In this document: piece after piece, positions 6,276 to 24,570 of the stretch
Layout of the letters: the number at the start of each line of letters is the position of its first letter
Position numbering within the stretch: position 1 is the stretch's first letter
Translations under genes and position numbers: made by a program
The notes under the pieces: model-generated
What the model was told of the DNA's origin: nothing
The model's database searches: none
Seen by the model: only the letters and a program-made list of their open reading frames with translations
Source: Heterodontus francisci
Taxonomy: Eukaryota
Assembly (NCBI RefSeq): GCF_036365525.1
Contig: NC_090399.1
Span: forward strand, 46,222,430 to 46,286,429
DNA: 64,000 nucleotides
Direction: 5' to 3'

Positions 6276-7649
6276 ACAGCAGAAGGCGAAATTTGAATTT
6301 AATTAATCTGGAATTAAAAAGCTAGTCTAATGATGGCCATGAAGCCATTGTCGATTGTTGTAAAAACCCATCTGGTTCACTAATGTCCTTCAGGGAAGGA
6401 AATCTGCTGTCCTTACCTGGTCTGGCCTACATGTGACTCCTGACCCACAGCAATGTGGTTAACTCTTACATACCCTCTGAAATGGCCTAGCAAGCCACTC
6501 AGTTGTACCTAACCGCTACAAAGTCTATAAAAAGAAATGAAACCGGACAGACCACCCGGCATCGATCTAGGCACCGGAAACGACAACGGCAAACCCAGCC
6601 CTGTCGACCCTGCAAAGTCCTCCTTACTAACATCTGGGGGCTTGTGCCAAAGTTGGGAGAGCTGTCCCACAGACGAGTCAAGCAACAGCCTGACATAGTC
6701 ATACTCACGGAATCTTACCTTGCAGACAATTTCCCAGACATTGCCATCACCATACCCGGGTGTGTCCTGTCCCACCGGCAGGACAGACCTACCAGAGGTG
6801 GTGGCACAGTGGTAAACAGTGGGGAGGGAGTTGCCCTGGCAGAACCTCCTACAGATTACCACCTACCGCCCTCCCTCAGCTGATGACTCAGTACTACTCC
6901 ATGTTGAACACCACTTGGAGGAAGCACTGAGGATGTCAAGGGCACAAAATGTACCCTGGGTGGGGGACTTCATTGTCCATCACCAAGAGTGGCTTGGTAG
7001 CACCACTACTGACTGAGTTGGCCGAGTCCTAAAGGACATAGCTGCGAGACTGGGTCTGCAGAAGGTGGTGGGGGAACCAGCACAAGGGAAAAACATACTT
7101 GACCTCATCCTCACCAAACTGCCTGCCACAGATGCTTCTGTCCATGACTGTATTGGTAGGAGTGACCACCACACAGTACTTGTGGAGGCGAAGTCCCGCC
7201 TTCACATTGAGGATACCGTCCATCGTGTTGTGTGGCACTACCACCGTGCTAAATGGGATAGATTTCTAACAGATCTTGCAATGCAAAACTGGGCATCCAC
7301 GAGGCGCTGTGGGCCATCAGCAGCAGCAGAATTGTACTCATCCACAATCTGTAACCTCATGGCCCGGCATATCCCCCACTCTACCATTACCATCAAGCCA
7401 GGAGATGAACCCTGGTTCAATGAAGAGTGCAGGAGGGCATGCCAGGAGCAGCACCAGGCATACCTCAAAATGTGGTGTCAACCTGGTGAAGTTACAACAC
7501 AGGACTATCTGCGTGCCAAACTGCGTAAGCAGCATGCGATAGACAGAGCTAAGCGATCCCATAACCAATGGATCAGATCTAACCTTTGCAGTCCTGCCAC
7601 ATCCAGCCGTGAATGGTGGTGGACAATTAAACAACTAACTGGAGGAGGT

Positions 7650-7998
7650 TTAGTTTAGTTTAGTGATACAGCACTGAAACAGGCCCTTCGGCCCACCGAG
7701 TCTGTGCCGACCATCAACCACCCATTTATACTAACCCTACACTAATCCCACATTCCTACCACATCCCCACCTGTCCCTATATTTCCCTACCACCTACCTA
7801 TACTGGGGGCAATTTATAATGGCCAATTAACCTATCAACCTGCAAGTCTTTGGCATGTGGGAGGAAACCGGAGCACCCGAAGGAAACCCACGCAGACACA
7901 GGGAGAACTTGCAAACTCCACACAGGCAGTACCCAGAATTGAACCCGGGTCGCTGGAGCTGTGAGGCTGCGGTGCTAACCACTGCGCCACAGTGCCGC
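7650..7998 (-). mobile_element. tRNA-derived SINE, copy 2, inserted in the LINE ORF
   Basis: Same family as 1285-1639; AGGT duplicated at 7646-7649 and 7999-8002; the LINE frame LTGGG resumes as GSTNIPILN. Confidence 0.92.
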
Positions 7999-9744
7999 AG
8001 GTGGCTCCACAAATATCCCCATCCTCAATGATGGGGGAGCCCAGCACATCAGTGCGAAAGATAAGGCTGAAGCATTTGCAACAATCTTCAGCCTGAAGTG
8101 CCGAGTTGATGATCCATCTCAGCCTCCTCCTGAAGTCCCCTGCATCACAGATGCCAGATTTCAGCCAATTCGATTCACTCCGCGTGATATCACGAAACGA
8201 CTGAAGGTACTGCATACTGCAAAAGCTATGGGCCCTGACAATATTCCGGCAATAGTACTGAAGACCTGTGCTCCAGAACTTGCCGCGGCCCTAGCCACGC
8301 TGTTCCAGTACAGCTACAACACTGGCATCTACCTTGCAATGTGGAAAGTTGCCCAGGTATGACCTGTACACAAAAAGCAGGACAAGTCCAACCCGGCCAA
8401 TTACCGCCCCATCAGACTACTCTCAATCATCAGTAAAGTGATGGAAGGTGTCATCAACAGTGCCATCAAGCAGCACTTGCTTAGCAATAATCTGCTCAGT
8501 GACGCTCAGTCTGGGTTCCGCCAGGGCCAGTCAGCTCCTGACCTCATTACAGCCTTGGTCAAACATGGACAAAAGAGCTGAACTCAAGAGGAGAGGTGAG
8601 AGTGACTGCCCTTGACATCAAGGCAGCGTTTGACTGAGTATGGCATCAAGGAGCCCTCGCAAAACTCAGGTCAATGGGAATCAGGGGGAAAACCCTCCGC
8701 TGGCTGGAGTCATACCTAACACAAAGGAAGATGGTTGTGGTTGTTGGAGGTCAATCATCTGAGCTCCAGGACATCACTGCAGGAGTACCTCAGGGTAGTG
8801 TCCTAGGCCCAACCATCTTCAGCTGCTTCATCAAAGACATTCCTTCAATCATAAGGTCAGAAGTGGGGATGTTCGCTGATGATTACACAATGTTCAGCAC
8901 CATTTGTGACTCCTCAGATACTGAAGCAGTCAGTGCAGAAATGCAGCAAGACTTCAACAATATCCAGGCTTGGGCTGATAAGTGGCAAGTCACATTCGTG
9001 CCACACAAGTGCCAGGCAATGACCATCTCCAACAAAAGAGAATCTAACCATCTCCCCTTGACATTCAACGGCATTACCATCGCTGAATCCCCCACTATCA
9101 ACATCCTGGGGGCTACCATTGACCAGAAACTGAACTGGAGTAGCCATATAAATACTGTGGCTACAAGAGCAGTTCAGAGGCTAGGAATCCTGAGGCGAGT
9201 AACTCACCTCCTGTCTCCCCAAAGCCTGTCCACCATCTACAAGGCACAAGTCAGGAGTGTGATGGAATACTCTCCACTTGCCTGGATGGGTGTAGCTCCA
9301 ACAACACTCAAGAAGCTTGATTGGCATCCCATCGACAAACATTCACTCCCTTCACCACCGACGCACAGTGGCAGCAGTGTGTACCATCTACAAGATGCAC
9401 TGCAGCAATGCACCAAGGCTCCTTAGACAGCACCTTCCAAACCCTCGACCTCTACCAACTAGAAGGACAAGGGCAGCAAATGCATGGGAACACCACCACC
9501 TGCAAGTTCCCCTCCAAGTCACACACCATCCTGACTTGGAACTCTATATCGCTGTTCCTTCACTGTCGCTGGGTCAAAATCCTGGAACTCCCTTCCTAAC
9601 AGCACTGTGGGTGTACCAACCCCAAATGGACTGCAGTGGTTCAAGAAGGCAGCTCACCACCATCTTCTCAAGGGCAATTAGGGATGGGCAACAAATGCTG
9701 ACGTAGCCAGTGACCCCCACATCCCATGAATGAATAAAACAAAA

Positions 9745-10140: not shown

Positions 10141-11224
10141 CCTACCAGCTGAATCAATTGCCCCCCCCATCCGTATAACCTTAACGCTCCTACCCTTTCT
10201 GGCACCCTCCTTACACACAGGGTGACTAGAGTGCCATTTCTCCTTCACACATACAAACAAATGCAGAGCATACACTGTCTACGGAGGGAGTGTACACACT
10301 ACTTCCCTTCATGCCTGCCGAGCTTGCCCTCCAGTAATCCCAGACCCCCTCCCTCCTTCCTTTAAGAAGGCAGAGTGAGATCCCTGAATATGCCCCCTGC
10401 CTCCTCTTTTCCTGAATGCAGAATGCGATCCCTGAATATCTCAACTTACCTTCTGCAGCGGAACCTTCTGCCTCCGACGACCCATCGGCTTTTTTGATCG
10501 TGAACTGGACGGCACGTGATGGTCACCCGTTCAACGAAAAATAAGGAAGTGTGCATGGAGAGTCGGTGGGCTGAATAATCTGCAGAGGTAAGTACCATTT
10601 TACATATGGTAATTGGGGTTCTGCCACCGAGTGGTGGGGGGGGGGGGGGTCGCACTGAGGTCCCTCTGTCGCTGGTAATTTGCGGGGGGCCCTTCTCGAC
10701 GTCGTGGGTGCAGGGGTCTTCTCCCCACAGACTTTTACCAGCCCCTGCGCCACGACCAGCGGCATCGAGGGGCCAGTAAAATACAGACTGGCAGTTTCTA
10801 GCCTGTTCTGGTGACACTGCAGTAGCCAGAGTGCATTAGGACAAACTGGTTCACTTGTCATCAGGTTAATAAAGCAGAGCTCTCACTCCTGTGAGAGAGA
10901 TGCATTATTTGTGTGTGAGTTTTCACCCTGTATCCAGTATGCAGAGTACATCATGAAACTAAATTTATAAAAAATGTCAGGCGCGAGTGACAGAACAAAC
11001 ATCAAAATTCAAAAGATTTTTGCATCTCATTTTTTAATTTAGTTTAAGCTTTTAGAGAACATAGTACATAACAAGTTCGATTGTAATCTTTATTTAGTAA
11101 GAAGCCCCATGCCCAGCAAAACATTGGCCATAACTGTACGAGAGCCTGTCACTGTAAGACAATCTTGCTCCCCAGTTAACATAAACTGGGAACTGTGCTA
11201 ATCCTCCAGAGAGAAAGAGATATC

Positions 11225-12448: not shown

Positions 12449-12561
12449 TCACGCAGTGTCACTGTGATGAAATGACACACTCCCCGATTCTTTCATCCAG
12501 TTCACCTGCTGACCTTCATGTGCTGAAGTCCCTGGAGTTCCAGTTGGGACATGGGAGGCCA
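12449..12561 (-). CDS. MHC class I-like gene, cytoplasmic terminal exon (predicted)
   Basis: Strong acceptor TTTATCTCTCTTCCCCAG; in phase 1 reads VASHVPTGTPGTSAHEGQQVNWMKESGSVSFHHSDTA then TGA at 12451-12449. Unique sequence 263 nt after the TM exon; internal donors cannot be excluded. Confidence 0.6.
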
Positions 12562-12824
12562 CTGGGGAAGAGAGATAAATACATGGTCATAGAGAAAGGA
12601 AAATATATCGGACACAGAGCACACACCCACAAACACCAGCAGCAAAACCCATCAGACCCAGAACACACCCCATAAACACCATCAGCAACATACTGGGCCC
12701 TAGCACCCCCACTCCCACTCACCTCCCTCACCCTGGACTCCAGCACCCATATTCCCACCCCCCACCGTCACTCTGGCCCCACCTCTCCCAACAAGGATCG
12801 GTCCATTACCTCCCCAATTCCTAC

Positions 12825-12929
12825 CTCTCTTTTTGTAGATGAAGAAAGCCAGGATAATGAGAATGATGACCAGCACAATCCCGAGCACAATACCGAGAAT
12901 AACAGGGACCTGGGAGTCTGACTGGGGAC
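12825..12929 (-). CDS. MHC class I-like gene, connecting peptide/transmembrane exon
   Basis: Acceptor CTCTCTGTTTCTCACTGACAG, donor G|GTAGGA, 105 nt, phase 1-1; GPQSDSQVPVILGIVLGIVLVIILIILAFFIYKKR gives a hydrophobic helix plus basic stop-transfer. Confidence 0.85.
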
Positions 12930-12991
12930 CTGTCAGTGAGAAACAGAGAGACAATCAGAGAGACACACAGAGAGGGAGAAGGAGACCGGGA

Positions 12992-13111
12992 GTCATAGAG
13001 TCACAGAGTTATACAGCACAAGAACAGGCCCTTTGGCCCATCGTGTCTGTGCTGGCCATCAAGCATCGAACTATTCTCATCCCATTTTCCAGCACTTGGC
13101 CCGTAGCCTTG
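12992..13111 (-). mobile_element. CR1 LINE 3' terminal fragment
   Basis: CATAGAGTCACAGAGTTATACAGCACAAGAACAGGCCCTTTGGCCCA, the same 3' end type as at 20213 and the SINE tails. Confidence 0.75.
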
Positions 13112-13590
13112 CCGGAAGCACTTTCTGTTGTCACACAATAGTTGGACTTTGATGGAATGAATACCCTTTATGTTTATGAAGGCAGCTGGTTGGCCCGTGG
13201 AAGCCCTGATGACCACATGTATGCAGTGGATGACACCTTCCACCTGTGGGAGTCCCATAACAGCCCCAAATCCAATGGCCCTCTCAGCCTGATTCTCAGG
13301 ATCAGTCCTGTAATGGACAATGCAGCGGCCCTCCTGCACAGAGCATCCGTCACCTCCTTGATGGAGCGGTGCATTGTAGATTGAGAGACCCCACACATGT
13401 TGCCAGTGGTTCCCTGCAATGATCTAGAGGTGTAGAGGTCCACAGTAAATTTGAGGGCCACAGGTATATCGTGTGACCACCAAAGCCCATTGGTTGCTGG
13501 TCATCATTCAGCAGCGCACAGAGATGTGTGACGACCTCTCTGGTCATCTGCAGTCATCTCGGACATTGGCGTTCAGACATCTGAAGGTAT
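13112..13590 (-). pseudogene. Harbinger (HARBI1-like) transposase, N-terminal fragment
   Basis: Frameshifted MTREVVTHLCALL, GVSQSTMHRSIKEVTDAL, GLPQVEGVIHCIHV and FINIKGIHSIKVQLLCD. Confidence 0.85.
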
Positions 13591-13699
13591 GTGAGGGGAG
13601 AGAGGGAAGGAGGGGGTAGGGACAGGACAGACAGAGAAGGAAACAGGGATTGAGAGAGAGGGGGAGGAGAGGGCGGGGTAGGAGGGTGTAGGGACAGGT

Positions 13700-16652
13700 A
13701 AAGATAGTTGTTAGCCTTTTAATAAACCTTTTGAGATCTTCAATCAACTGAACCCCAGATATCAGGCAACATAAAAAAGCTTTTCATAACCTGGTGGCAG
13801 CTGTGGTGAGAAGATAACATCTAAGACTGAAGACCATGGGAAAACAGTTTTGAAATCTACCTCCCTACATCTTGGAGAGAGGAAGTTAAAAGAAACACTG
13901 GCCCAAACAGTTAAAGAATAAAACACTTACCCCAAGCGGTAGAAGACAGGGTGTTGAACGACAGTCTGCAAATCAATCACTATGATCGTGTGAGTCAGTC
14001 AGCCCTCCATACAGGAACTCCCGTTTTAAAACAAAAGAAGCTCTGAAGTGCTTAAATGGTTGAGTCTTAATAAAGGCTCAGTAAAAGAAAAAAAAAAGCA
14101 GGGAAAACCTAATCCCTGTCAGAGACTAATCGATTGTTTCCAAATGCTCTCTCAAGCTGATCGAGGCGCGCGCCATTACAGGAGGCGACCGACAGTGAAA
14201 AGCACGAGAATCCTCCATTCATGTAGCTGGTAGCTAGAGATATAAAAAGAAACCCATTAAATCACTCCAAGGCTGAAGAGTTGTCATTCACTCAGCCAAA
14301 GTAAAAAAAAAACTCATAAAAGCACTCAAGTGTGAAGAATTGCCGATTGAATGGCTGAGTAAACAAAACTGGAGCAGAAAAAGGGACTTCAACTGCCTAT
14401 TAGACAGCTATGTAAACAGACAGAACTGGCTTAGTGCTGGAAGCAAGATAAGCATACAGCACTGCAAAACATATGCCTCTGTCAATCAAAGCAACTAGTC
14501 GAGAGACACAGTTTTTTTTTTAAAGAGAAAGCAGTATAAAGAAACAGGACCAGGTCTTAAAGCAAGTACTTAAAGCAAAATTTAAAGCAAAAGAACCACA
14601 GAAAAATGGATACCAAATTATTTCCCAACATGAATGGGAAAGCCTTGGATATCCTATCCAAATTCAGACTGTTCTAACAGAGAATGTAATTATGCTTTAC
14701 AGACCAAATCATTGTAGAACTGGAAGAGCAAGCTGTAAAAATCATTGCTATTGGAAATGAGGGATTACACAGAATCAACACCCCTGGACTATCTGACAAG
14801 GACCAGAAAGATCCCGCAAAGATATGGAAAGTGCTAGAAGATCAGCTCTGATTACGAGTGAATTTTAGAATTCACCGCCCGGAATGGATGTCCGACAGGC
14901 AACAGCCACAGGAATCAATAGACCAATTTGTCAGTAGATGCTGTAGTAAGGGCAATGAATGAGACTTCTCAGAAACTGAGCTGTTGGACTGAATAATGGA
15001 GCCAGTGATTGTGTCAACATCCATTGAAGTGTTTCAGAAAGACCTACTGGGCAAAATGAAATGTCACAGCATTGATACAATTCAGGGAGATGGCAGGAAA
15101 TACGAAGCCATTGTAACTGGACAACAGCACCTACAAGCACTGGGCGCAACCAACAGTATCGGCACCATAACCATGTCAAAAAGAGCAGGCAAGCTGTGCG
15201 GTAAGTGTGGTTGGTCCGTCTCGCGGTGAAATTGCCCTGTATTTCAAGACCTGTGCAAGGCGTGCCATGTAAGAGGACACTGGGCCCACCTATGCAGGAA
15301 TTCTGGCTTGAAAGACGCAGCCAGAAGTAACGGTTGGACTCAAACAAACAGGCAACAGGGCAACAACAGCAAGGAAAGTACCAGATACCTGCATATACAC
15401 AAGGTGATACATGGGGTCCACAGCAAAACAGACCTGCGACAAGACTCCGAGAGAAGTAATGCTGAGTCAGACAATGAACAGGCATTCTACATTGTGAACC
15501 TGACACATCATGATGATGAATTCCAACAACTGGAACCTTTCGCCACTATTAACATCACATGCCCAAAGAAAGCTGGAAAACACACATTCAAGATCAAGAT
15601 TGACACTGGTGTTAGTGAAAATATCCTACCAGTACGAATTCTCAAAGATATATACTGGAGCCATTGGAAATCAATGATACAACCAATAACTGCCAAGTTA
15701 TCTTCATACAACGGGTCATCCATCCTTTGCAGTGGCACATTAACAATGCAAATCAAATACGGCAAGTTGGCCTGGAAACCACAAACGTTCTACTAGTAGA
15801 CATGAGCGGACTAGCAGTGGAAAGAGTATCAGTGTGCAAGGACCTTAGCAACATAACCATCCATGACAGCATTGCCAAGGAAAAGTCTCCAAGGACCGGA
15901 ACTCGCTCGCAGACTCTGACTAGCATCAAATGGTGCAGTCTGGAAACCCAGCGACAGCACAACTATGCCACACCTTCACTTCAGCTCTCTAGAGAACTGC
16001 CAGCACCACAGTGAGCCAGAATGGACAGGTGAGACCAAGTCCTCCTCCTGGAGCCCCAAGCCTTCAGAGGCAGAGGATGAGGAGAGGCGAAGGACACACA
16101 ATGTTGTGAAGAGGCAGAGGAGAATATGTCTATTGGCTCTTTGAGATGAGGTGCCGGAACTTTCCAAGAATGACAAGGCCCCAAAAGTGTTCTCTAGAGA
16201 AAAGCAACAGAGTTTGTTAGCAGGATGAAGGCAGAGCAACAGAAACTGAATGCAGAGATGGAGAAACTGCAGAAAAAAACAGCAACAGATGAAACACAAA
16301 CTCTCCAAGCAAGAGTTGTCAAACTATTGAGACAATCAATGGACTTTTGAGCCTCTATATTTGTAAAGTTCATAATTTCTATAAATGTGTAAATAATTTT
16401 GGTGCGATCAAATTTTGTACTTCCAGCAGACGAGATTTATCTTTGGAAAGAAGGGGAATGCTGTGTGATTACCTTTAGAGTAATGTACCTTTAAGATGTT
16501 ATTCTGCTAATGAGCTGAATAGCAGGTTGCAGTCTTGTGACTACATGCCAGTCCTACTCTGCAACTGTAACACCAGAAAGCAAGTCCTGTAAATAGTAGT
16601 TCTGTACTGTATACTGTACAGCATCAGACAACATAAAAAGTTTCTCATTGCA
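13700..16652 (+). mobile_element. Internally deleted Gypsy-like LTR retrotransposon (gag and protease remnants)
   Basis: Shared LTR 3' ends ATCAGGCAACATAAAAAAGCTTTTCAT (~13761-13787) and ATCAGACAACATAAAAAGTTTCTCAT (~16623-16648); PBS-like TGGTGGCAGC at 13792; CCHC knuckle CKACHVRGHWAHLC (15254-15295); protease KIDTG (~15602); PPT GGAAAGAAGGGGA before TG at 16459. No RT or integrase seen. Confidence 0.8.
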
Positions 16653-16664
16653 AATAATCTGGGT

Positions 16665-19165
16665 CGTCGTACTGTAATATCCCAGGACAAACCGGGCTCT
16701 GTCTTACTGTAATATCCCAGGATACACCAGGCTCTGTCGCACTGTATCATCCCAGAATACACTGGGCCCTGTCACACTGTAACATCCCAGGATACACCGG
16801 GCCCTGTCCCACTGTAATATCCCAGGATACACGGGGCCCTGTCTCACTATAATATCCAGGATACACTGGGACATGTCTCACAGTAATAGCCCTGGATACA
16901 CCGGGCCCTGTCTCACTGTAATATCCAGGATACACTGGGACCTGTCGAATTGTAATATCCAAAGATACACCAGGCCCTCTTGCACTGTAATATCCCAGGA
17001 TACATCGGGCCCTGTCACACTGTAATATCCCAGGACACACCGGGCCCTGTCACACTGTAGTATCCCAGGATATACCGGGCTCTGTCTTACTGCAGTATCC
17101 CAGGATACACCAAGCTCTGTCACACTGCATCATCCCAGGATACACTGTGCCCTGTCTCACTGTAATATCCCAGGATACACCGGGCTCTGTCTTACTGCAA
17201 TATCCCAGGATACACCAAGCTCTGTCACACTGTATCATCCCAGGATACACTGCACCCTGTCTCACTGTAATACCCCAGGATACACCAGGCTCTGTCAGAC
17301 TGTAATATCCCAGAATACACTGGGCCCTGTCACACTGCAATATCCCAGGATACACCAGGACTGTCACACTGTATTCTCCCAGGATACACCAGGCCCTGTC
17401 GCGGTGCAATATCCAGGATGCACCAGACCCTGTCACCCTGTAATATCCCAGAGTACACTGGGCCCTGTCACTGGAATATCCCAGGATACACTGGGCCCTG
17501 TCGCACTGTAATATCCCAAGATTCACCGGGCCGTGTATCACTGTAATATCCCAGGATACACAGGGCCCTGTCACTGGAATATCCCAGGATACACAGGGCC
17601 CTGTCACTGTAATATCCCAGGATACACCGGGCCCTATCACACTGCAATATCCAAGGATACATCGGGCCCTGTCGCACTGTAATATCCCAGGATACACCCG
17701 CCCTGTCACACTGTAATATCCCAGGACACACAGGGCCCTGTCAAGTTGTAATATCCAAGGATACACCGGGCCCTGTAGCACTGTAATATCCCAGGATATA
17801 CCGGGCCCTGTCAAGTTGTAATATCCCAGGATACACCGGGCCCTGTCACCCTGTAATATCCAAGGATACACCGGGCCCTGTAGCACTGTAATATCCCAGG
17901 ATACACCCGCCCTGTCACACTGTAATATCCCAGGATACACAGGGCCCTGTCTCACTGTAATATCCCAGAGTACACTGGACCTTGTCACTGTAACATCCCA
18001 GGATACACTGAGCCCTGTCGCACTGTAATATCCCAGGATATACCGGGCCCTGTCAAGTTGTAATATCCCAGGATACACCGGGCCCTGTCACCCTGTAATA
18101 TCCAAGGATACACCGGGCCCTGTCTCATTGTAATATCCCTGGATACACCGGGTCCTGTCACACTGTAATATCCAAGATACACCGGGCCCTGTCACACTGT
18201 AATATCCCAGGATACACCAGGCTCTGTCATACTCTGTCAGGGGCGGCACAGTGGCGCAGTGGATGGCACCGCAGCCTCACAGCTCCAGCGACCCAGGTTC
18301 AATTCTGGGTACTGCCTGTATGGAGTTTGCAAGTTCTCCCTGTGTCTGCGTGGGTTTCCTGCGGGTGCTCCGGTTTCCTCCCACAGCCAAAAGACTTGCA
18401 GGTTGATAGGTAAATTGGCCATTATAAATTGCCCCGAGTATAGGTAGGTGGTAGGGGAATATAGGGACAGGTGAGGATGTGGTGGGAATAGGGGATTAGT
18501 GCAGGATTAGTATAAATGGGTGGTTAATGGTCGGCACAGACTCGATGGGCCGAAGGGCCTGTTTCAGTGCTGTATCTCTAAATCTAAAATCTAAAAAAAA
18601 ATACTGTAATATCCCAGAATACACTGGGCCCTGTCACACTGTAATATCCCAGGATACACTAGGACTGTCACACTGTAATCTCCCAGGATACACCAGGCCC
18701 TGTTGCGCTGCATTATCCAGGACACACCAGACCCTGTCAACCTGTAATATCCCAGAGTATACCGTGCCCTGTCACTGGAATATCCCAGGATACACCAGGC
18801 CCTGTCACACTGTAATATCACAAGATACACCGGGCCGTGTCTCACTGTAATATCCCAGGTTGCACCGGGCCCTGTCACTGGAATATCCCAGGATACACAG
18901 GGCCCTGTCACTGGAATATTCCAGTGTACACCGGGCCCTGTCATTGTAATATCCCGGGATAATCTGGGTCCTGTTGCTTTGTAATATCCTAGAATACACC
19001 GGATTCCATCGCACTGCAATATCCAAGATACACCAGGTCGTCGCACTGTTATATCCAAGGATACCCGAGGTCCTGGCATTGTAATATCCTGGGATTCCCT
19101 AGATACTGGTTTCATCATATCCTGTGATACGCCGAGCCCTGTTGCACTACAATATCGCAGGATTT
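16665..19165. repeat. 35 bp minisatellite array, with 2-3 more units at 21585-21665
   Basis: Unit CTGTCACACTGTAATATCCCAGGATACACCGGGCC, period 35 (16671/16706) with some 33 bp variants. Confidence 0.95.
18241..18600 (+). mobile_element. tRNA-derived SINE, copy 3, inserted in the 35 bp array
   Basis: Starts GGGCGGCACAGTGGCGCAGTGG, B box GGTTCAATTCT, ends TCTAAATCTAAAATCTAAAAAAAA. Confidence 0.92.
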
Positions 19166-21588
19166 TTAAAATTCATTCATGGGATGTGGGCATCACTGGC
19201 CAGGCCAGCATTTATTGCCCATCCCTAATTGCCCTTGAGAAGGTGGTGGTGAGCTGCCTTCTTGAACCGCTGCAGTCCTTGTGAGGTAGGTACACCCACA
19301 GTGCTGTTAGGAAGGGAGTTCAAGGCGTTTGACCCAGCGACAGTGAAGGAACGGCGATATAGTTCCAAGTCAGGATGGTGTGTGACTTGGAGGGGAACTT
19401 GCAGGTGGTGGTGTTCCCATGCATCTGCTACCCTTGTCCTTCTAGTTGGTATAGGTCGCAGGTTTAGAAGGTGCTGTCTAAGGAGACTTGGTGCATTGCT
19501 GCAGTGCATCTTGTAGATGGTACACACTGCTGCCACTGTGCGTCGGTGGTGGAGGGAGTGAACGTTTGTGAATGGGGTGCCAAGTGGGCTGCTTTGTCCT
19601 GGAAGGTGCAGAGCTTCTTGAGTGTTGGAGTTGCACCCATCCAAAAAAGTGGAGAGTATTTCATCACACTCCTGACTTGTGCCTTGTAGATGGTGGACAG
19701 GCTTTGGGGAGTCAAGATGTGAGTTACTTGCCGCAGGAATCCTAGCCTCTGACCTGCTCTTTTAGCCATGGTATTTATATGGCTACTCCAGTTCAGTTTC
19801 TGGTCAACGTTAACCCCCAGAATGTTGATAGTGGGGGATTCAGCGATGGTAATGCCACTGAATGTCAAGGGGAGATTTTAGATTCTTTCTTGTTGGAGAT
19901 GGTCATTGCCTGGCACTTGTGTGGCGTGAATGTTACTTGCCACTTATCAGCCCAAGCCTGGATATTGCCCAGGTCTTGTTGCATTTCTACACAGACTTCT
20001 TCAGTATCTGAGGAGTCACGAATGGTGCTGAACATTGTGCAATCATCAGCGAACATCCCCACTTCTGACCTTATGATTGAAGGAATGTCTTTGATGAAGC
20101 AGCTGAAGATGGTTGGGCCTAGGACACTACCCTGAGGAACTCCTGCAGTGATGTCTTGGAGTTGAGATGACTGACCTCCAACAACCACAAACATCTTCTT
20201 TTGCTCTAGGTATATAGAACATAGAACATAGAACAGTACAGCACAGTACAGGCCCTTCGGCCCACGATGTTGTGCCGAACCTTTAACCTACTCTAATATC
20301 AATCTAACTACCTACCTTTCATTCTACTATCATCCATGTACCTATCCAAGAGTCGCTTAAATGCCCCTAATGTATCTGCTTCTACTACCACCGCTGGCAA
20401 CGCATTCCACGCACCCACCACCCTCTGTGTAAAGAACCTACATCTGACATCTCCCCGAAACCTTCCTCCAATCACCTTCAAATTATGCCCCCTGGTGATA
20501 GCCCTTTCCACCCTGGGAAAAAGTCTCTGGCTATCCACTCTATCTATGCCTCTCATCATCTTGCACCCCTCTATCAAGTCACCTCTCATCCTTCTTCGCT
20601 CCAATGAGAAAAGCCCTAGCTCCCTCAATCTTTCTTCGTAGGACATGCCCTCCAGTCCAGGCAGCATCCTGGTAAATCTCCTCTGCACCCTCTCTAAAGC
20701 TTCCACATCCTTCCTATAATGAGGTGACCAGAACTGAACTCAATATTCCAAGTGTGGTCTAACCAGGGCTCTATAGAGCTGCAGCATAACCTCGCGGCTC
20801 TTAAACTCAATCCCCCTGTTAATGAAAGCCAACACCCCATACGCCTTCTTAACAACCCTATCAACTTGGGTGGCAACTTTGAGCGATCTATGGACATGGA
20901 CCCCAAGATCCCTCTGTTCCTCCACACTACCAAGAATCCTGTCTTTAAGCCTGTATTCCGCATTCAAATTCGACCTTCCAAAATGAATCACTTCATTATA
21001 TCTCCAACCAGCGGAGAGTTTTCCCCCGATTCCCATTGACTCCAGATTTGCTAGGGCTCCTTGATACCATACTCAATCAAATGCTGCCTTGATGTCAAGG
21101 GCAGTCACTCTCACCTCACCTCTTGAGTTCAGCTCTTTTGTCCATGTTTCGATCAAGCATATAATGAGGTCAGGAACTGACTGGCCCTGGCAGAATCCAA
21201 ACTTAGCGTCACTGAGTAGGTCATTGCTAAGCGAGTGACCTTGATAGCACTCTCGACGACACCTTCCATTACTTTACTGATGATCAAGAATCAAATTTTA
21301 GGGCGCTAATTGGCCGGGTTGGATTTGTCCTGCTTTTTGAGCACAGGGTTTTCCTGGTCAATTTTCCACATTGCCGGGTAGATGCCAGTGTTGTAGTTGT
21401 ACTGGAACAGCTTGGCTAGGGGCGCAGCATGTCCTGGAGCACAGGTCTTCAGTACTATTGCCGGAATATTGCCAGGACCCATAGCCTTTGCGGTATCCAG
21501 TGCCTTCAGTCGTTTCTTGATATCACACGGAGTGAATCGAATTGGCTGAAGTCTGGCATCTGTGATGCTGGGGACTTCAGGAGGAGGA
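19166..21588 (-). mobile_element. 5'-truncated L2-like LINE (RT and 3' end), interrupted by CR1
   Basis: Reverse-complement match to 8120-9740 (PPEVPSITDA, GVPQGSVLGP, MFADD); the 35 bp repeat flanks it on both sides. Confidence 0.9.
20213..20995 (-). mobile_element. Well-preserved 5'-truncated CR1 LINE nested in L2
   Basis: EVIHFGRSN..LYRALVRPHLEY and MSYEERLRELGLFSLERRRMRGDLIE..FFTQRVVGAWNALP; (GTTCTAT)n tail; the L2 sequence resumes at CTCCAACCAGCGGAG. Confidence 0.92.
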
Positions 21589-21846
21589 TACACCAATCCC
21601 TGTCCCACTGCAATATCCCAGGATACACCAGACTCTGTCCCACCGCAATATCCCAGGGTACACCAGCTCAATTACTGCCCTGTATGAGGGGCGTGAAGAG
21701 TTTGACACATTGAAAGCTAATAGTTATTTCCCTCTCTTTATATCCTGGGCCTCAGCCTGTCCCGCAATGGCAGCTCAGCACTGACCCTCCCTCCTGTGCT
21801 CCTGTTCTGAGGCTGGGTCCCCTCTAACAGTGAGAGACAGTCTTAC

Positions 21847-22110
21847 CATAAATCACCACCATTGTCTCCCTCAGTGCACTGTGCTCCACCCGACAGGAAT
21901 ACTCAGCCTGGTCTTCCGGATCAAACTCCGTCCATTTCCGGATCTGGAAGGTGTTGTTGTGATTGGGTAAGATCCCAGAGGATAGGGTCTCATCGATCAA
22001 CACTCCATCTCTCCACAGAGTCACCTCAATGTCTGGAGGGTAAAACCCAGTGATGACACAGGACAGCCGGTTAGAATCACCCAGACGGGTAAAGGATACG
22101 ATGGGGGCGA
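21847..22110 (-). CDS. MHC class I-like gene, alpha3 (C1-set Ig) exon
   Basis: Acceptor TTTCTCTCTCTCTCAG, donor G|GTAAGA, 264 nt, phase 1-1; IAPIVSFTRLGDSNRLSCVITGFYPPDIEVTLWRDGVLIDETLSSGILPNHNNTFQIRKWTEFDPEDQAEYSCRVEHSALRETMVVIY has C..GFYP, LPN..TFQ and YxCxVxH. Confidence 0.95.
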
Positions 22111-22164
22111 CTGAGAGAGAGAGAAAGTGGAATCAATGCAGGATCTCCAATATAGAGAGTCACT

Positions 22165-22885
22165 CACTGACCCTCACTCAGAGAATACCCCACTAACTGA
22201 CACTCAGACCCCCCCCTCACTCACTGACTCTCAGTCTCCCCCTCACTCACCGACTCTCAGTCACCCCCTCACTCACCAACTTTAAGTCTCGCCCTCACTC
22301 ACTGACTCTCAGTCCCCCCTTCTCAGTCACTGACTTTCAGTACCAACCTCACTCACTGACTCTCAGTCCCACCTCACTCACTAACTCTCAGTCCCCCCCT
22401 CACTCACCGACTCTCAGTCCCCCCCTCACTCACTGACTCTCAGTCCCCCCCTCACTCACTGACTCTCAGTCCCCCCCTCACTCACCGACTCTCAGTCCCC
22501 CCTTCACTCACTGACTCTCAGTCCCCCCTTCTCAGTCACTGACTTTCAGTACCAACCTCACTCACTGACTCTCAGTCCCACCTCACTCACTCACCGACTC
22601 TCAGTCCCCCCCTCACTCACCGACTCTCAGTCCCCCCCTCACTCACCAACTCTCAGTCCCCCCCTCACTCATCGACTCTCAGTCCCCCCCTCACTCATCG
22701 ACTGTCAGTCCCCCCCTCACTCACCGACTCTCAGTGCCCCCCTCACTCACCGACTCTCAGTCCCCCCTTCTCACTCATTGACTCTCTGTCGCCCACCTCA
22801 CACACTGACTCTCAGTCCCGTCCTCACTCACTCACACTCAGTACCCCCCTCACTCACTGACTCTCAGTCCCCCCTCACCCTCCGA
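22165..22885. repeat. ~26 bp minisatellite filling the alpha2-alpha3 intron
   Basis: Unit CTCACTCAC(T/C)GACTCTCAGTCCCCCC, period 26 at 22385/22411. Confidence 0.95.
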
Positions 22886-22896
22886 CCCTCACTCAC

Positions 22897-23169
22897 TGAG
22901 TGTTAGTATTCTAGCTTTGTTCAGCAGACACAACCTCAGCCACTGGATGCAGATCTCTTTCAGATAGAACTTCCACCTCTGATTGTTTGCTGTGTCCTGA
23001 TTCCAATTGTCCTGGGCAGTGTGTGCCCATGGTGCCTGTGCCACCCACTCCGCCTTATCTGGGTCGAAGCTCATCATGTCTTGGCCATCCCAGCCCAACT
23101 GGAGGAACTCAGTTTTGTTCCCGACATCCTTTAGCTCACAGCCAGTCCTCACCTGGAGCATGTGTATTC
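22897..23169 (-). CDS. MHC class I-like gene, alpha2 exon
   Basis: Acceptor TGTTTGATTGACAG, donor A|GTGAGT, 273 nt, phase 1-1; GIHMLQVRTGCELKDVGNKTEFLQLGWDGQDMMSFDPDKAEWVAQAPWAHTAQDNWNQDTANNQRWKFYLKEICIQWLRLCLLNKARILTL has HxLQxxxGCE, DGxD and YLxxxCxxWL. Confidence 0.95.
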
Positions 23170-23202: not shown

Positions 23203-23386
23203 GCATTCCCGAGATCCCGCCCACAATTCCATCATCACTTGAACTCTAAATTCCCCCACCATCGACATCCTGGGGGCTGTCACCACTGACCAGAAACTGA
23301 ACTGCACCAACCACATAAATACTGTGGCCACAACAGCAGGTTGGAGGCTGGGAATTCTGTAGCGAGTAACTCACCTCCCGACTCCC
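23203..23386 (+). mobile_element. L2-like LINE internal fragment
   Basis: GACCAGAAACTGAACTGCACCAACCACATAAATACTGTGGC matches 9121-9160. Confidence 0.75.
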
Positions 23387-23394
23387 TAAAACCT

Positions 23395-23965
23395 TTCATA
23401 GGGACAGACGAACATCAGGAATAGGAGCAGGAGAAGGCCATTTGGCCCATCGAGTCTGCTCCACCAATCAATATGATCACGGCTGATCTTCCACCTCAAT
23501 GCCATCTTCCTGCAGTCTCCCATATCCCTTAATTCTCCAAAAGTCCATAAACCTCTGTCTTGAATATACTCAACAACTGAACATTCACAGTTCTCTGGGG
23601 TAGAGAATTCCAAAGATTCACAGCCCTTTGAATGAATAAATTTCTCCCCATGTCAGTTCCAATGGCCGACCCCTTATTCTGAGACTGTGACCCCGTGTTC
23701 TAGATTCCCCGGCCAGGGGGACATATTTTCTCAGCATCTACCCTGTCAAAGCTCTTAGAATGTTATATGTTTCACTGAGATCACCCTCATTCTTCTAAAC
23801 TCCAGGGAATATAGGCCCAGTCTACTCAATCTCTCCTATGGGACCATCCTCTCATCCCAGGAACCAGTCTAGTGAACCTTCTTTGCAGTCCCTCTAGGGT
23901 AAGTATGTCCCTCCTTTGGTCAGGAGACAAGACTGCACACAGTGCTCCAGGTGTGGACTCATCAG
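23395..23965 (-). mobile_element. CR1 LINE 3' fragment
   Basis: AGGAATAGGAGCAGGAGAAGGCCATT 3'-end type and a decayed CR1 ORF2 C-terminus on the minus strand. Confidence 0.8.
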
Positions 23966-23969
23966 CTTT

Positions 23970-24570
23970 TTAAATTCATTCTTGGGATGTGGGTGTCACT
24001 ACAAAGGCCAGTATTTGTTGCCCATCCCTATTTGCCCTTGGGGAGTTGTTGGTGAGCTGCCTTATTGAACCACTGCAATCCTTGGCTGTAGGTACACCCA
24101 CAGTGCTGTTAGGGAGTGAGCTCCAGGTTTCTGACCCAGCGACAGCGATATATTTCAAAGCCAGGATGATGTGTGACTTGGAAAGGAACTTGAAGGTGCA
24201 GGTGTTCCCATGCATCTGCTGCCCTTGTCCTTCTAGGTGGTCGAGATCGCAGGGTTGAAAGGTGCTGTCGAAGGAGACTTCGTAAGTTACAGCAGTGCAT
24301 CTTGTAGATGGTACACACAGCTGCCACTGTGCGTCAGTGGTGGAGGGAGTGAATGTTTAAGGTTGTGGATGGGGTGCTGATCAAACCGGTTGCTTTATCC
24401 TGGATGATGTTGAGCTTCATGAGTTATTGGAGCTGCTGCACCCATCCAGACAACTGGAGAGTATTCCATCACACTCCTGACTTGTGCCTTGTAGATGGTG
24501 GACAGGCTTTGGGGAGTCAGGAGGTGAGTTACTCAGCACAGAATTCCCAGCCTCTGACCTGCTCTTGTAG
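23970..24570 (-). mobile_element. L2-like LINE 3' fragment
   Basis: Similar to 19166-19760 (AAVCTIYKMHC, AWEHLHLQVP). Confidence 0.85.

Follow-up and report, generated by a model that had tools for sequence, protein, structure and literature searches.

A probable UBA-lineage nonclassical MHC class I gene with a remodeled groove in horn shark DNA

[quoted passage not shown] As far as the sequence can tell, the lineage is not new; UBA is already a named family. The reading that we favor for the gene product, to which as a whole we give an even chance, is by analogy with chicken YF1: a UBA molecule that would bind beta2-microglobulin (beta2m) and carry a hydrophobic, noncanonical ligand. Taken in parts, expression of the gene is likely; given expression, a ligand of the hydrophobic, noncanonical class is somewhat favored; and a lipid in particular is possible, with the balance leaning against it.

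All four exons are on the minus strand. The alpha2 exon (positions 23169 to 22897; 273 nts, phase 1 at both ends) encodes the C101-C164 pair, C171, and an N-K-T sequon near human leukocyte antigen (HLA) position 108. The alpha3 exon (22110 to 21847; 264 nts) encodes a UBA-type immunoglobulin (Ig) C1-set domain with P235 and an N-N-T sequon. The connecting peptide and transmembrane (TM) segment share an exon of 105 nts (12929 to 12825) that ends in YKKR, and the cytoplasmic-tail exon (12561 to 12449; stop codon at 12451 to 12449) encodes no Tyr and has a possible internal donor after 12514. Each exon has an AG acceptor and the first three have a GT donor; all three junctions are in phase 1, and joining the exons gives a frame free of internal stops. 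Pfam identified alpha2 as MHC_I (E = 8.6e-16) and alpha3 as C1-set (E = 1.5e-16). The window chain is colinear with P0005, a predicted Heterodontus francisci protein, with no gap opposite window residues, and is identical to it at 73/90 residues in alpha2, 79/88 in alpha3, 34/35 in the TM exon, and 35/37 in the tail. Because of this gapless colinearity, the exon set is real, far beyond chance. An earlier note on this DNA had described four GT-AG exons joined in phase 1 into a single open alpha2-alpha3-TM-tail frame, and the splice sites, Pfam, and the colinearity with P0005 bear this out; from the sequence and the database gene models, we infer that the four exons are spliced together. No other class I gene lies in the window, and neither do any flanking genes.

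A search with alpha2 returned two proteins among 12 candidates, both from H. francisci (P0005 and P0006), and a search with full-length P0006 yielded 79 out of 1863 candidates, shark and ray class I proteins with few exceptions. Seven of the 79 homologs (P0051 and P0076 to P0081) were left out of the trees for partial coverage; the reduced trees used 39 of the remaining 72. The UBA reference was found through the supplement of PMC10751288, in which the row Gcirratum_UBA_AAC60347 matches homolog P0028 (O19479) by eye in alpha1, alpha2, and alpha3. P0028 is the only row with a published UBA label; for the other rows, "UBA" means membership of its clade in the first tree, the groups having been named afterwards. 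We take O19481, Q8HWH7, and M4R434 to be classical from their anchor residues.

In the tree of alpha2 plus alpha3 with 73 rows, the window chain fell in a 41-row clade with P0028 (Shimodaira-Hasegawa-like approximate likelihood ratio test [SH-aLRT], 99). With 40 rows, support was 99/99 for the UBA clade and 96/95 for nesting of the window chain among Heterodontus UBA rows. A site-heterogeneous model with 43 rows (three UDA-like rows added) gave the same clade at 99/99 and the nesting at 82/96, with the bootstrap not fully settled. The UBA clade was itself nested among UAA-like rows, with the UDA-like rows outside (97/93). On alpha2 plus alpha3, approximately unbiased (AU) tests rejected uniting the window chain with a set of three classical-type rows from Heterodontus (p = 0.032) and also with the whole group of 14 UAA-like rows (p = 2.6e-5). 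The best single-domain trees also put the window chain in UBA (alpha2, 92/90; alpha3, 86/93), a second alpha2-only tree grouped it with a Heterodontus UBA row (97/83), and a split supported at 99/98 put the alpha1 domain of the paralog P0006, on a long branch, together with the UBA rows. The window chain matched 18 of 25 UBA-diagnostic columns (17/19 in alpha3 and 1/6 in alpha2) and 1 of 10 non-UBA-diagnostic columns; its alpha3 is 73% identical to that of nurse shark O19479 and 84% identical to that of horn shark O19480. Seven UBA-clade H. francisci proteins are encoded on one 74.5-Mb contig, which fits a UBA cluster with c4 and rxrb flanks but is no test of this locus.

UBA has been described as a named multicopy class Ib family that derives from UAA and was first reported in 1997 (PMC12562908, PMC10751288). 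Three rows with the supplement's UDA motif formed a separate clade, with 30 to 40% alpha2 identity to the window chain. UCA, UFA, and UGA were compared with supplement rows by eye only: UCA is without C101 and C164, in UFA the W-D-G-x-D strand is missing, and none of UDA, UCA, UFA, and UGA has in alpha3 the UBA-type motifs of the window gene. A search for a row labeled UEA gave no match. Lipid binding has been reported for UFA and UGA (a personal communication that PMC12562908 cites). The nonclassical status proposed in the earlier note therefore stands, the gene being separate from the UAA-like clade and keeping two of five classical anchors (T143, K146, W147, Y159, and Y171). The same note's "poorly described chondrichthyan lineage" is indeed chondrichthyan, but that it is poorly described is not supported, given the grouping with the published reference AAC60347. 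The gene does fall outside classical UAA; it falls within a known lineage, however, and by the earlier note's own account such a placement takes the novelty away.

Within the sequences retrieved, the trees make the window gene, P0005, and P0006 a young, fast-evolving branch within UBA, a subclade of three members that are all of Heterodontus type (support of 100 in the 73-row tree; 100/100 for the grouping with both paralogs). P0005 and P0006 are H. francisci RefSeq proteins ("MHC class I-related gene protein-like") with the same TM and tail start; the window chain is 88% identical to P0005 over 250 amino acids and 83% identical to P0006 over 228, with 63/90 alpha2 residues shared with the latter. 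Identical to neither of them, the window gene is either one more paralog or else an orthologous gene of a related horn shark. The MR1-type name of the two proteins is an automatic database label, and the gene is not MR1; orthology to MR1, hinted at by that name and by the PDB ranks, was rejected: the top-ranking structure is from shark, and the MR1 chains are no more than 32 to 34% identical. Word-indexed searches gave no subclade members in other sharks (only P0005 and P0006 among 12 and 37 candidates and 79 matches), which is weak evidence of absence, and a motif scan of 141 representatives gave one chance match at 31% identity. A literature search, whose coverage did not extend to the main journal papers on shark class Ib lineages, turned up nothing on a UBA subfamily in Heterodontus.

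The stem of the subclade is 0.94 or 0.68 (two trees) for alpha2 versus 0.097 for alpha3, a 7- to 10-fold difference. Thus, change was concentrated in the groove, with the Ig domain, the disulfide, and the beta2m contacts kept. The terminal branch of the window gene (0.044 to 0.05) is shorter than those of its paralogs.

The groove residues were numbered as in HLA, which was verified by eye in the supplement alignment of PMC10751288, on its HLA-A2 row. Formal alignment gave M123, A143, N146, W147, Y159, C171, C101, C164, Q96, D119, G120, and D122 in the window gene, and P235 aligned with the mammalian Pro in the supplement alignment; all the residues listed in the earlier note, including those said to contact beta2m, were thus correct. 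To judge how unusual they are, we compared them with 38 other UBA-clade rows and 30 other chondrichthyan rows. Position 143, Ala in the window gene, is Ile in 34/38 of the former and Thr in 26/30 of the latter; position 146, here Asn, is Lys in 5/38 and 22/30, respectively; and position 123, here Met, is Tyr in 3/38 and 4/30. Because these positions are already altered in such rows, most of the anchor loss is the normal UBA or shark state, and the argument built on it was overstated, although C171, M123, and the hydrophobic floor are unusual. The UBA references (AAC60347/O19479 and O19480) likewise have T143 and K146 replaced, keep W156 and the beta2m contacts, and belong to a family that is multicopy in H. 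francisci. Compared with them, the window alpha2 is just 50 to 51% identical and has A143 in place of the usual Ile, C171, E112, M123, L114/L116, and a Tyr-less tail.

C171 is present in 3/3 subclade members versus 1/38 other UBA rows and 0/30 other chondrichthyan rows, and E112 also marks the subclade, the residue being Gly or Ala in 38/38 other UBA rows. With M123 and a leucine-rich hydrophobic floor, these are the hallmarks of the subclade. The floor residues of the window gene are L95, V97, L114, L116, M123, M124, W156, and I163; the mean hydropathy of seven alpha2 floor positions is 2.67 (rank 4/71), versus a mean of 0.79 for other UBA rows. In alpha1 of P0006, groove hydropathy is 1.52, the highest of 36 (the maxima are 1.22 among 23 UBA rows and 0.80 among 12 UAA-like rows). 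P0006 has I7, M26, S59, and L84 in alpha1 and lacks N86, whereas the other UBA rows keep Y7 (20/23), G26 (22/23), R84 (18/23), and the N86 glycan site (23/23). According to PMC8236899, the network of hydrogen bonds to the peptide N terminus consists of Y7, Y59, Y159, and Y171. An AlphaFold model of P0006, made from a 36-row alignment, has class I topology (mean predicted local distance difference test [pLDDT] score, 81), and its first structure match is nurse shark class I, 6LUP (E = 5.8e-31). We take D119, G120, D122, and P235 to have beta2m-contact roles. Q96 and Q115 are conserved beta2m-interface residues according to the published description.

In the favored reading, the leader and alpha1 exon would lie more than 40 kb upstream of alpha2, and the spliced heavy chain would adopt the class I fold, pair with beta2m through the surface formed by Q96, Q115, D119, G120, D122, and P235, and reach the membrane. 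The hydrogen bonds for the peptide termini would be lost at both ends of the groove (through C171, A143, and N146, and in the paralog also through I7, M26, S59, and L84), so that the hydrophobic floor could hold a lipid-like molecule or a hydrophobic peptide without anchored termini. This ligand would be displayed to innate-like T cell or natural killer (NK)-type receptors, as with chicken YF1 and its classical scaffold. In PMC2998441, chicken YF1*7.1 is described as having a classical scaffold and a groove that is hydrophobic and binds lipid. The two are not orthologous; the likeness is one of function, to a young offshoot of the classical branch that is beta2m bound and has a hydrophobic groove. 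Lipid binding and a narrow groove have been demonstrated for YF1, whereas for the window gene we infer them. In a further-reaching version, which we consider unlikely, a class I subfamily of their own, presenting lipids or metabolites, would have arisen in horn sharks out of the UBA cluster, a young, independent YF1/CD1-like invention. The N-terminal pocket would then have been dismantled (Y7I, G26M, and Y171C), the N86 glycan replaced by sequons elsewhere, and a Tyr-less tail exon swapped in, and the unpaired C171 might tether a ligand covalently or dimerize.

Several observations weigh against the favored reading. The hydrophobicity is less distinctive when all 19 alpha2 groove positions are used (rank of only 6/71); three other shark or ray proteins have a floor that is equally or more hydrophobic; and the window gene retains W147 and Y159 as well as the polar or charged N146, D150, N152, and R155. 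The alpha1 evidence comes from the paralog P0006, not from the window gene, and for this copy our scans of the window met neither an alpha1 nor a leader exon in the 40.8 kb upstream. As to lineage, the AU test on alpha2 plus alpha3 did not reject the window chain as the sister of the remaining UBA rows (p = 0.30), alpha2-only AU tests rejected neither placement outside UBA (p = 0.26) nor placement with the Heterodontus classical-type rows (p = 0.25), and with alpha1 of P0006 the alternative placement was also unrejected (p = 0.44). The strong support for UBA leans on alpha3, because alpha2 matches so few of its diagnostic columns, and alpha3 domains can be homogenized between paralogs.

The missing 5′ part bears on whether there is a product at all. 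No leader or alpha1 exon was found anywhere in the 64-kb window by tblastn with the 79 homologs (among the matches listed), by an open reading frame scan, or by a scan for islands in the satellite. Upstream of alpha2 there is only about 1.5 kb of LINE-like (long interspersed nuclear element) DNA before a purine-rich satellite with a 19-bp unit, which runs from 24712 to 63990 (∼2088 copies, 39.3 kb) in the place expected for the alpha1-alpha2 intron; the satellite-island scan found no atypical or exon-like island inside it. The satellite is strand biased, with an AT skew of ∼0.83 and a higher-order recurrence at ∼2.8 to 2.9 kb. The gene can therefore not be called "apparently intact," as it was in the earlier note. 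If it is whole, the alpha1-alpha2 intron must exceed 40.8 kb, and any leader and alpha1 exons that the gene may have are outside the window.

The main rival reading, fairly unlikely on our assessment, is that the locus is a 5′-truncated or decaying duplicate from the UBA cluster, its frame still open, that makes no protein because alpha1 was lost or cut off by the satellite or because splicing fails at the repeat-filled intron. Besides the absence of upstream exons, six of the last nine alpha2 residues are unlike those of both paralogs. The 786-nt alpha2-alpha3 intron (22111 to 22896, minus strand) is mostly a 26-bp tandem repeat and contains 22 GTGAGT motifs in addition to the donor used; read-through would meet a stop three codons on. 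Multicopy gene clusters often contain dead copies, and UBA is multicopy (PMC10751288). Against a dead copy stand the four open exons with canonical sites, the intact cysteines and beta2m contacts, a TM segment and tail identical to those of P0005 at 69/72 residues, and a terminal branch that is not long. The unit of the 26-bp repeat (22191 to 22891) itself resembles an amplified alpha2 exon end with its splice donor: 16/21 bases match the exon end, as 1 in 5000 random 21-mers do, and read in frame the unit gives L-R-V, the alpha2 ending most often seen in the aligned homologs (25/73).

An expressed UBA molecule whose groove holds no exchangeable ligand, and which acts as a surface ligand or a transport-type receptor like HFE, FcRn, or MIC, seems to us improbable. 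Bulky residues at usually small sites (M26 and L63 in the paralog; W156, M123, and M124) would fit such a molecule, as would the loss of the N86 glycan from the paralogs, and class Ib molecules have been described as binding nothing or as serving nonimmune roles (PMC10751288, PMC8713811). Members of the subclade, however, vary at groove positions 95, 97, 99, 116, 143, 150, 152, 155, and 163, which fits a variable ligand site, and the helix lengths are unchanged.

Very improbable is a mosaic, an old, separate nonclassical lineage in which UBA neighbors converted the alpha3, TM, and tail parts, which would rescue the idea of a poorly described lineage. The long alpha1 and alpha2 branches and the nonsignificant alpha2-only AU tests would suit it, and the paralogs' Glu at 102 and LRP ending resemble UAA-like rows. 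Yet the best alpha1 and alpha2 trees both lie among UBA, the UBA-typical W156 and "WNQ" are present, and an old lineage should be widespread, whereas the word-indexed searches and the scan of 141 representatives found no member outside Heterodontus-type sequences. A classical UAA allele or direct duplicate presenting ordinary peptides is hardly tenable and already largely refuted: it shares the fold and exon layout of UAA (nurse shark AF220063/PDB 6LUP; horn shark O19481), has the nurse shark classical molecule 6LUP as its best match among solved structures, and keeps W147 and Y159, but T143, K146, and Y171 are lost, the clade is separate, the non-UBA-diagnostic columns and both AU tests on alpha2 plus alpha3 go against it, and there is no classical tail.

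With the lineage already known, the gene taken by itself adds a modest annotation. The remaining interest is in the groove-remodeled subclade, already present in databases as two uncharacterized predictions. PMC10751288 describes shark class Ib lineages as having no known function. If expressed, the subclade is of wider interest, because its differences from ordinary UBA lie almost solely in the groove and the tail. Comparison with close relatives would then test directly whether peptide-type class I genes of the oldest jawed vertebrates give rise to nonpeptide presentation more than once and within a short time, in addition to the ancient CD1-like UFA and UGA. Were the YF1/CD1-like version true, the subclade would offer a three-gene, short-branch model of the change from a peptide groove to a nonpeptide groove.

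The lack of Tyr sets the window tail apart from the usual shark class I tail, GY(N/S)P(T/A), and suggests that the usual tyrosine-based trafficking motif is unused. Profiles from 32 homologs detected no canonical shark tail exons in the 12.4 kb downstream; the best scores were 15.8 (self range, 20.4 to 36.1) and 18.9 (self range, 18.0 to 39.5), the latter on the plus strand, and the best minus-strand score was 15.0. Similar tail starts occur in predicted UBA-clade proteins from Cetorhinus (P0013), Carcharodon (P0017), and Scyliorhinus torazame (P0038), and thus the tail exon is older than the subclade. These shared starts hint at a conserved alternative tail exon. The first AATAAA downstream of the tail exon is at 11094.

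The alpha3-TM intron (12930 to 21846, minus strand; 8917 nts) contains LINE and SINE (short interspersed nuclear element) fragments, a 35-bp minisatellite, and, antisense to the gene, a decayed retroelement with a MYC fragment. The MYC-family fragment is from the 3′ part of the gene (15950 to 16330, plus strand) and has stops, deletions, and frameshifts in the basic helix-loop-helix (bHLH)-zipper region; positions 16058 to 16201 match Myc structures with E = 2.8e-8, and the fragment looks like a processed retrocopy. The retroelement spans 14600 to 16635 on the plus strand, with decayed gag- and protease-like frames directly 5′ of the MYC fragment; the zinc knuckle in the gag-like frame (E = 0.012) is below the cutoff, and the protease motif was identified by eye. 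The MYC fragment is followed by a tract of purines and by a TG...CA stretch similar to a 3′ long terminal repeat (LTR; ∼16448 to 16635). The position of the fragment between the gag- and protease-like frames and the LTR-like stretch suggests that a myc transcript was captured in an LTR retroelement, replacing reverse transcriptase (RT) and integrase. The window yielded no second copy of the LTR, and a literature search on such capture gave nothing on point.

Other repeats are spread over the rest of the window. LINE copies at 6500 to 9740, 19170 to 21590, and 23250 to 24570 are 80 to 90% identical to one another, and the first has an RT domain (E = 1.6e-17) at 8638 to 9423. Three copies of a SINE-like repeat of ∼350 bp (1284 to 1639, 7649 to 7998, and 18241 to 18596) are 92 to 94% identical; an Rfam scan of positions 1 to 25000 gave no match at the gathering score, these repeats included. 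One of the copies interrupts the 35-bp minisatellite (16671 to 19089; ∼60 copies), and a 19-bp GT-rich array occupies positions 3 to 874.

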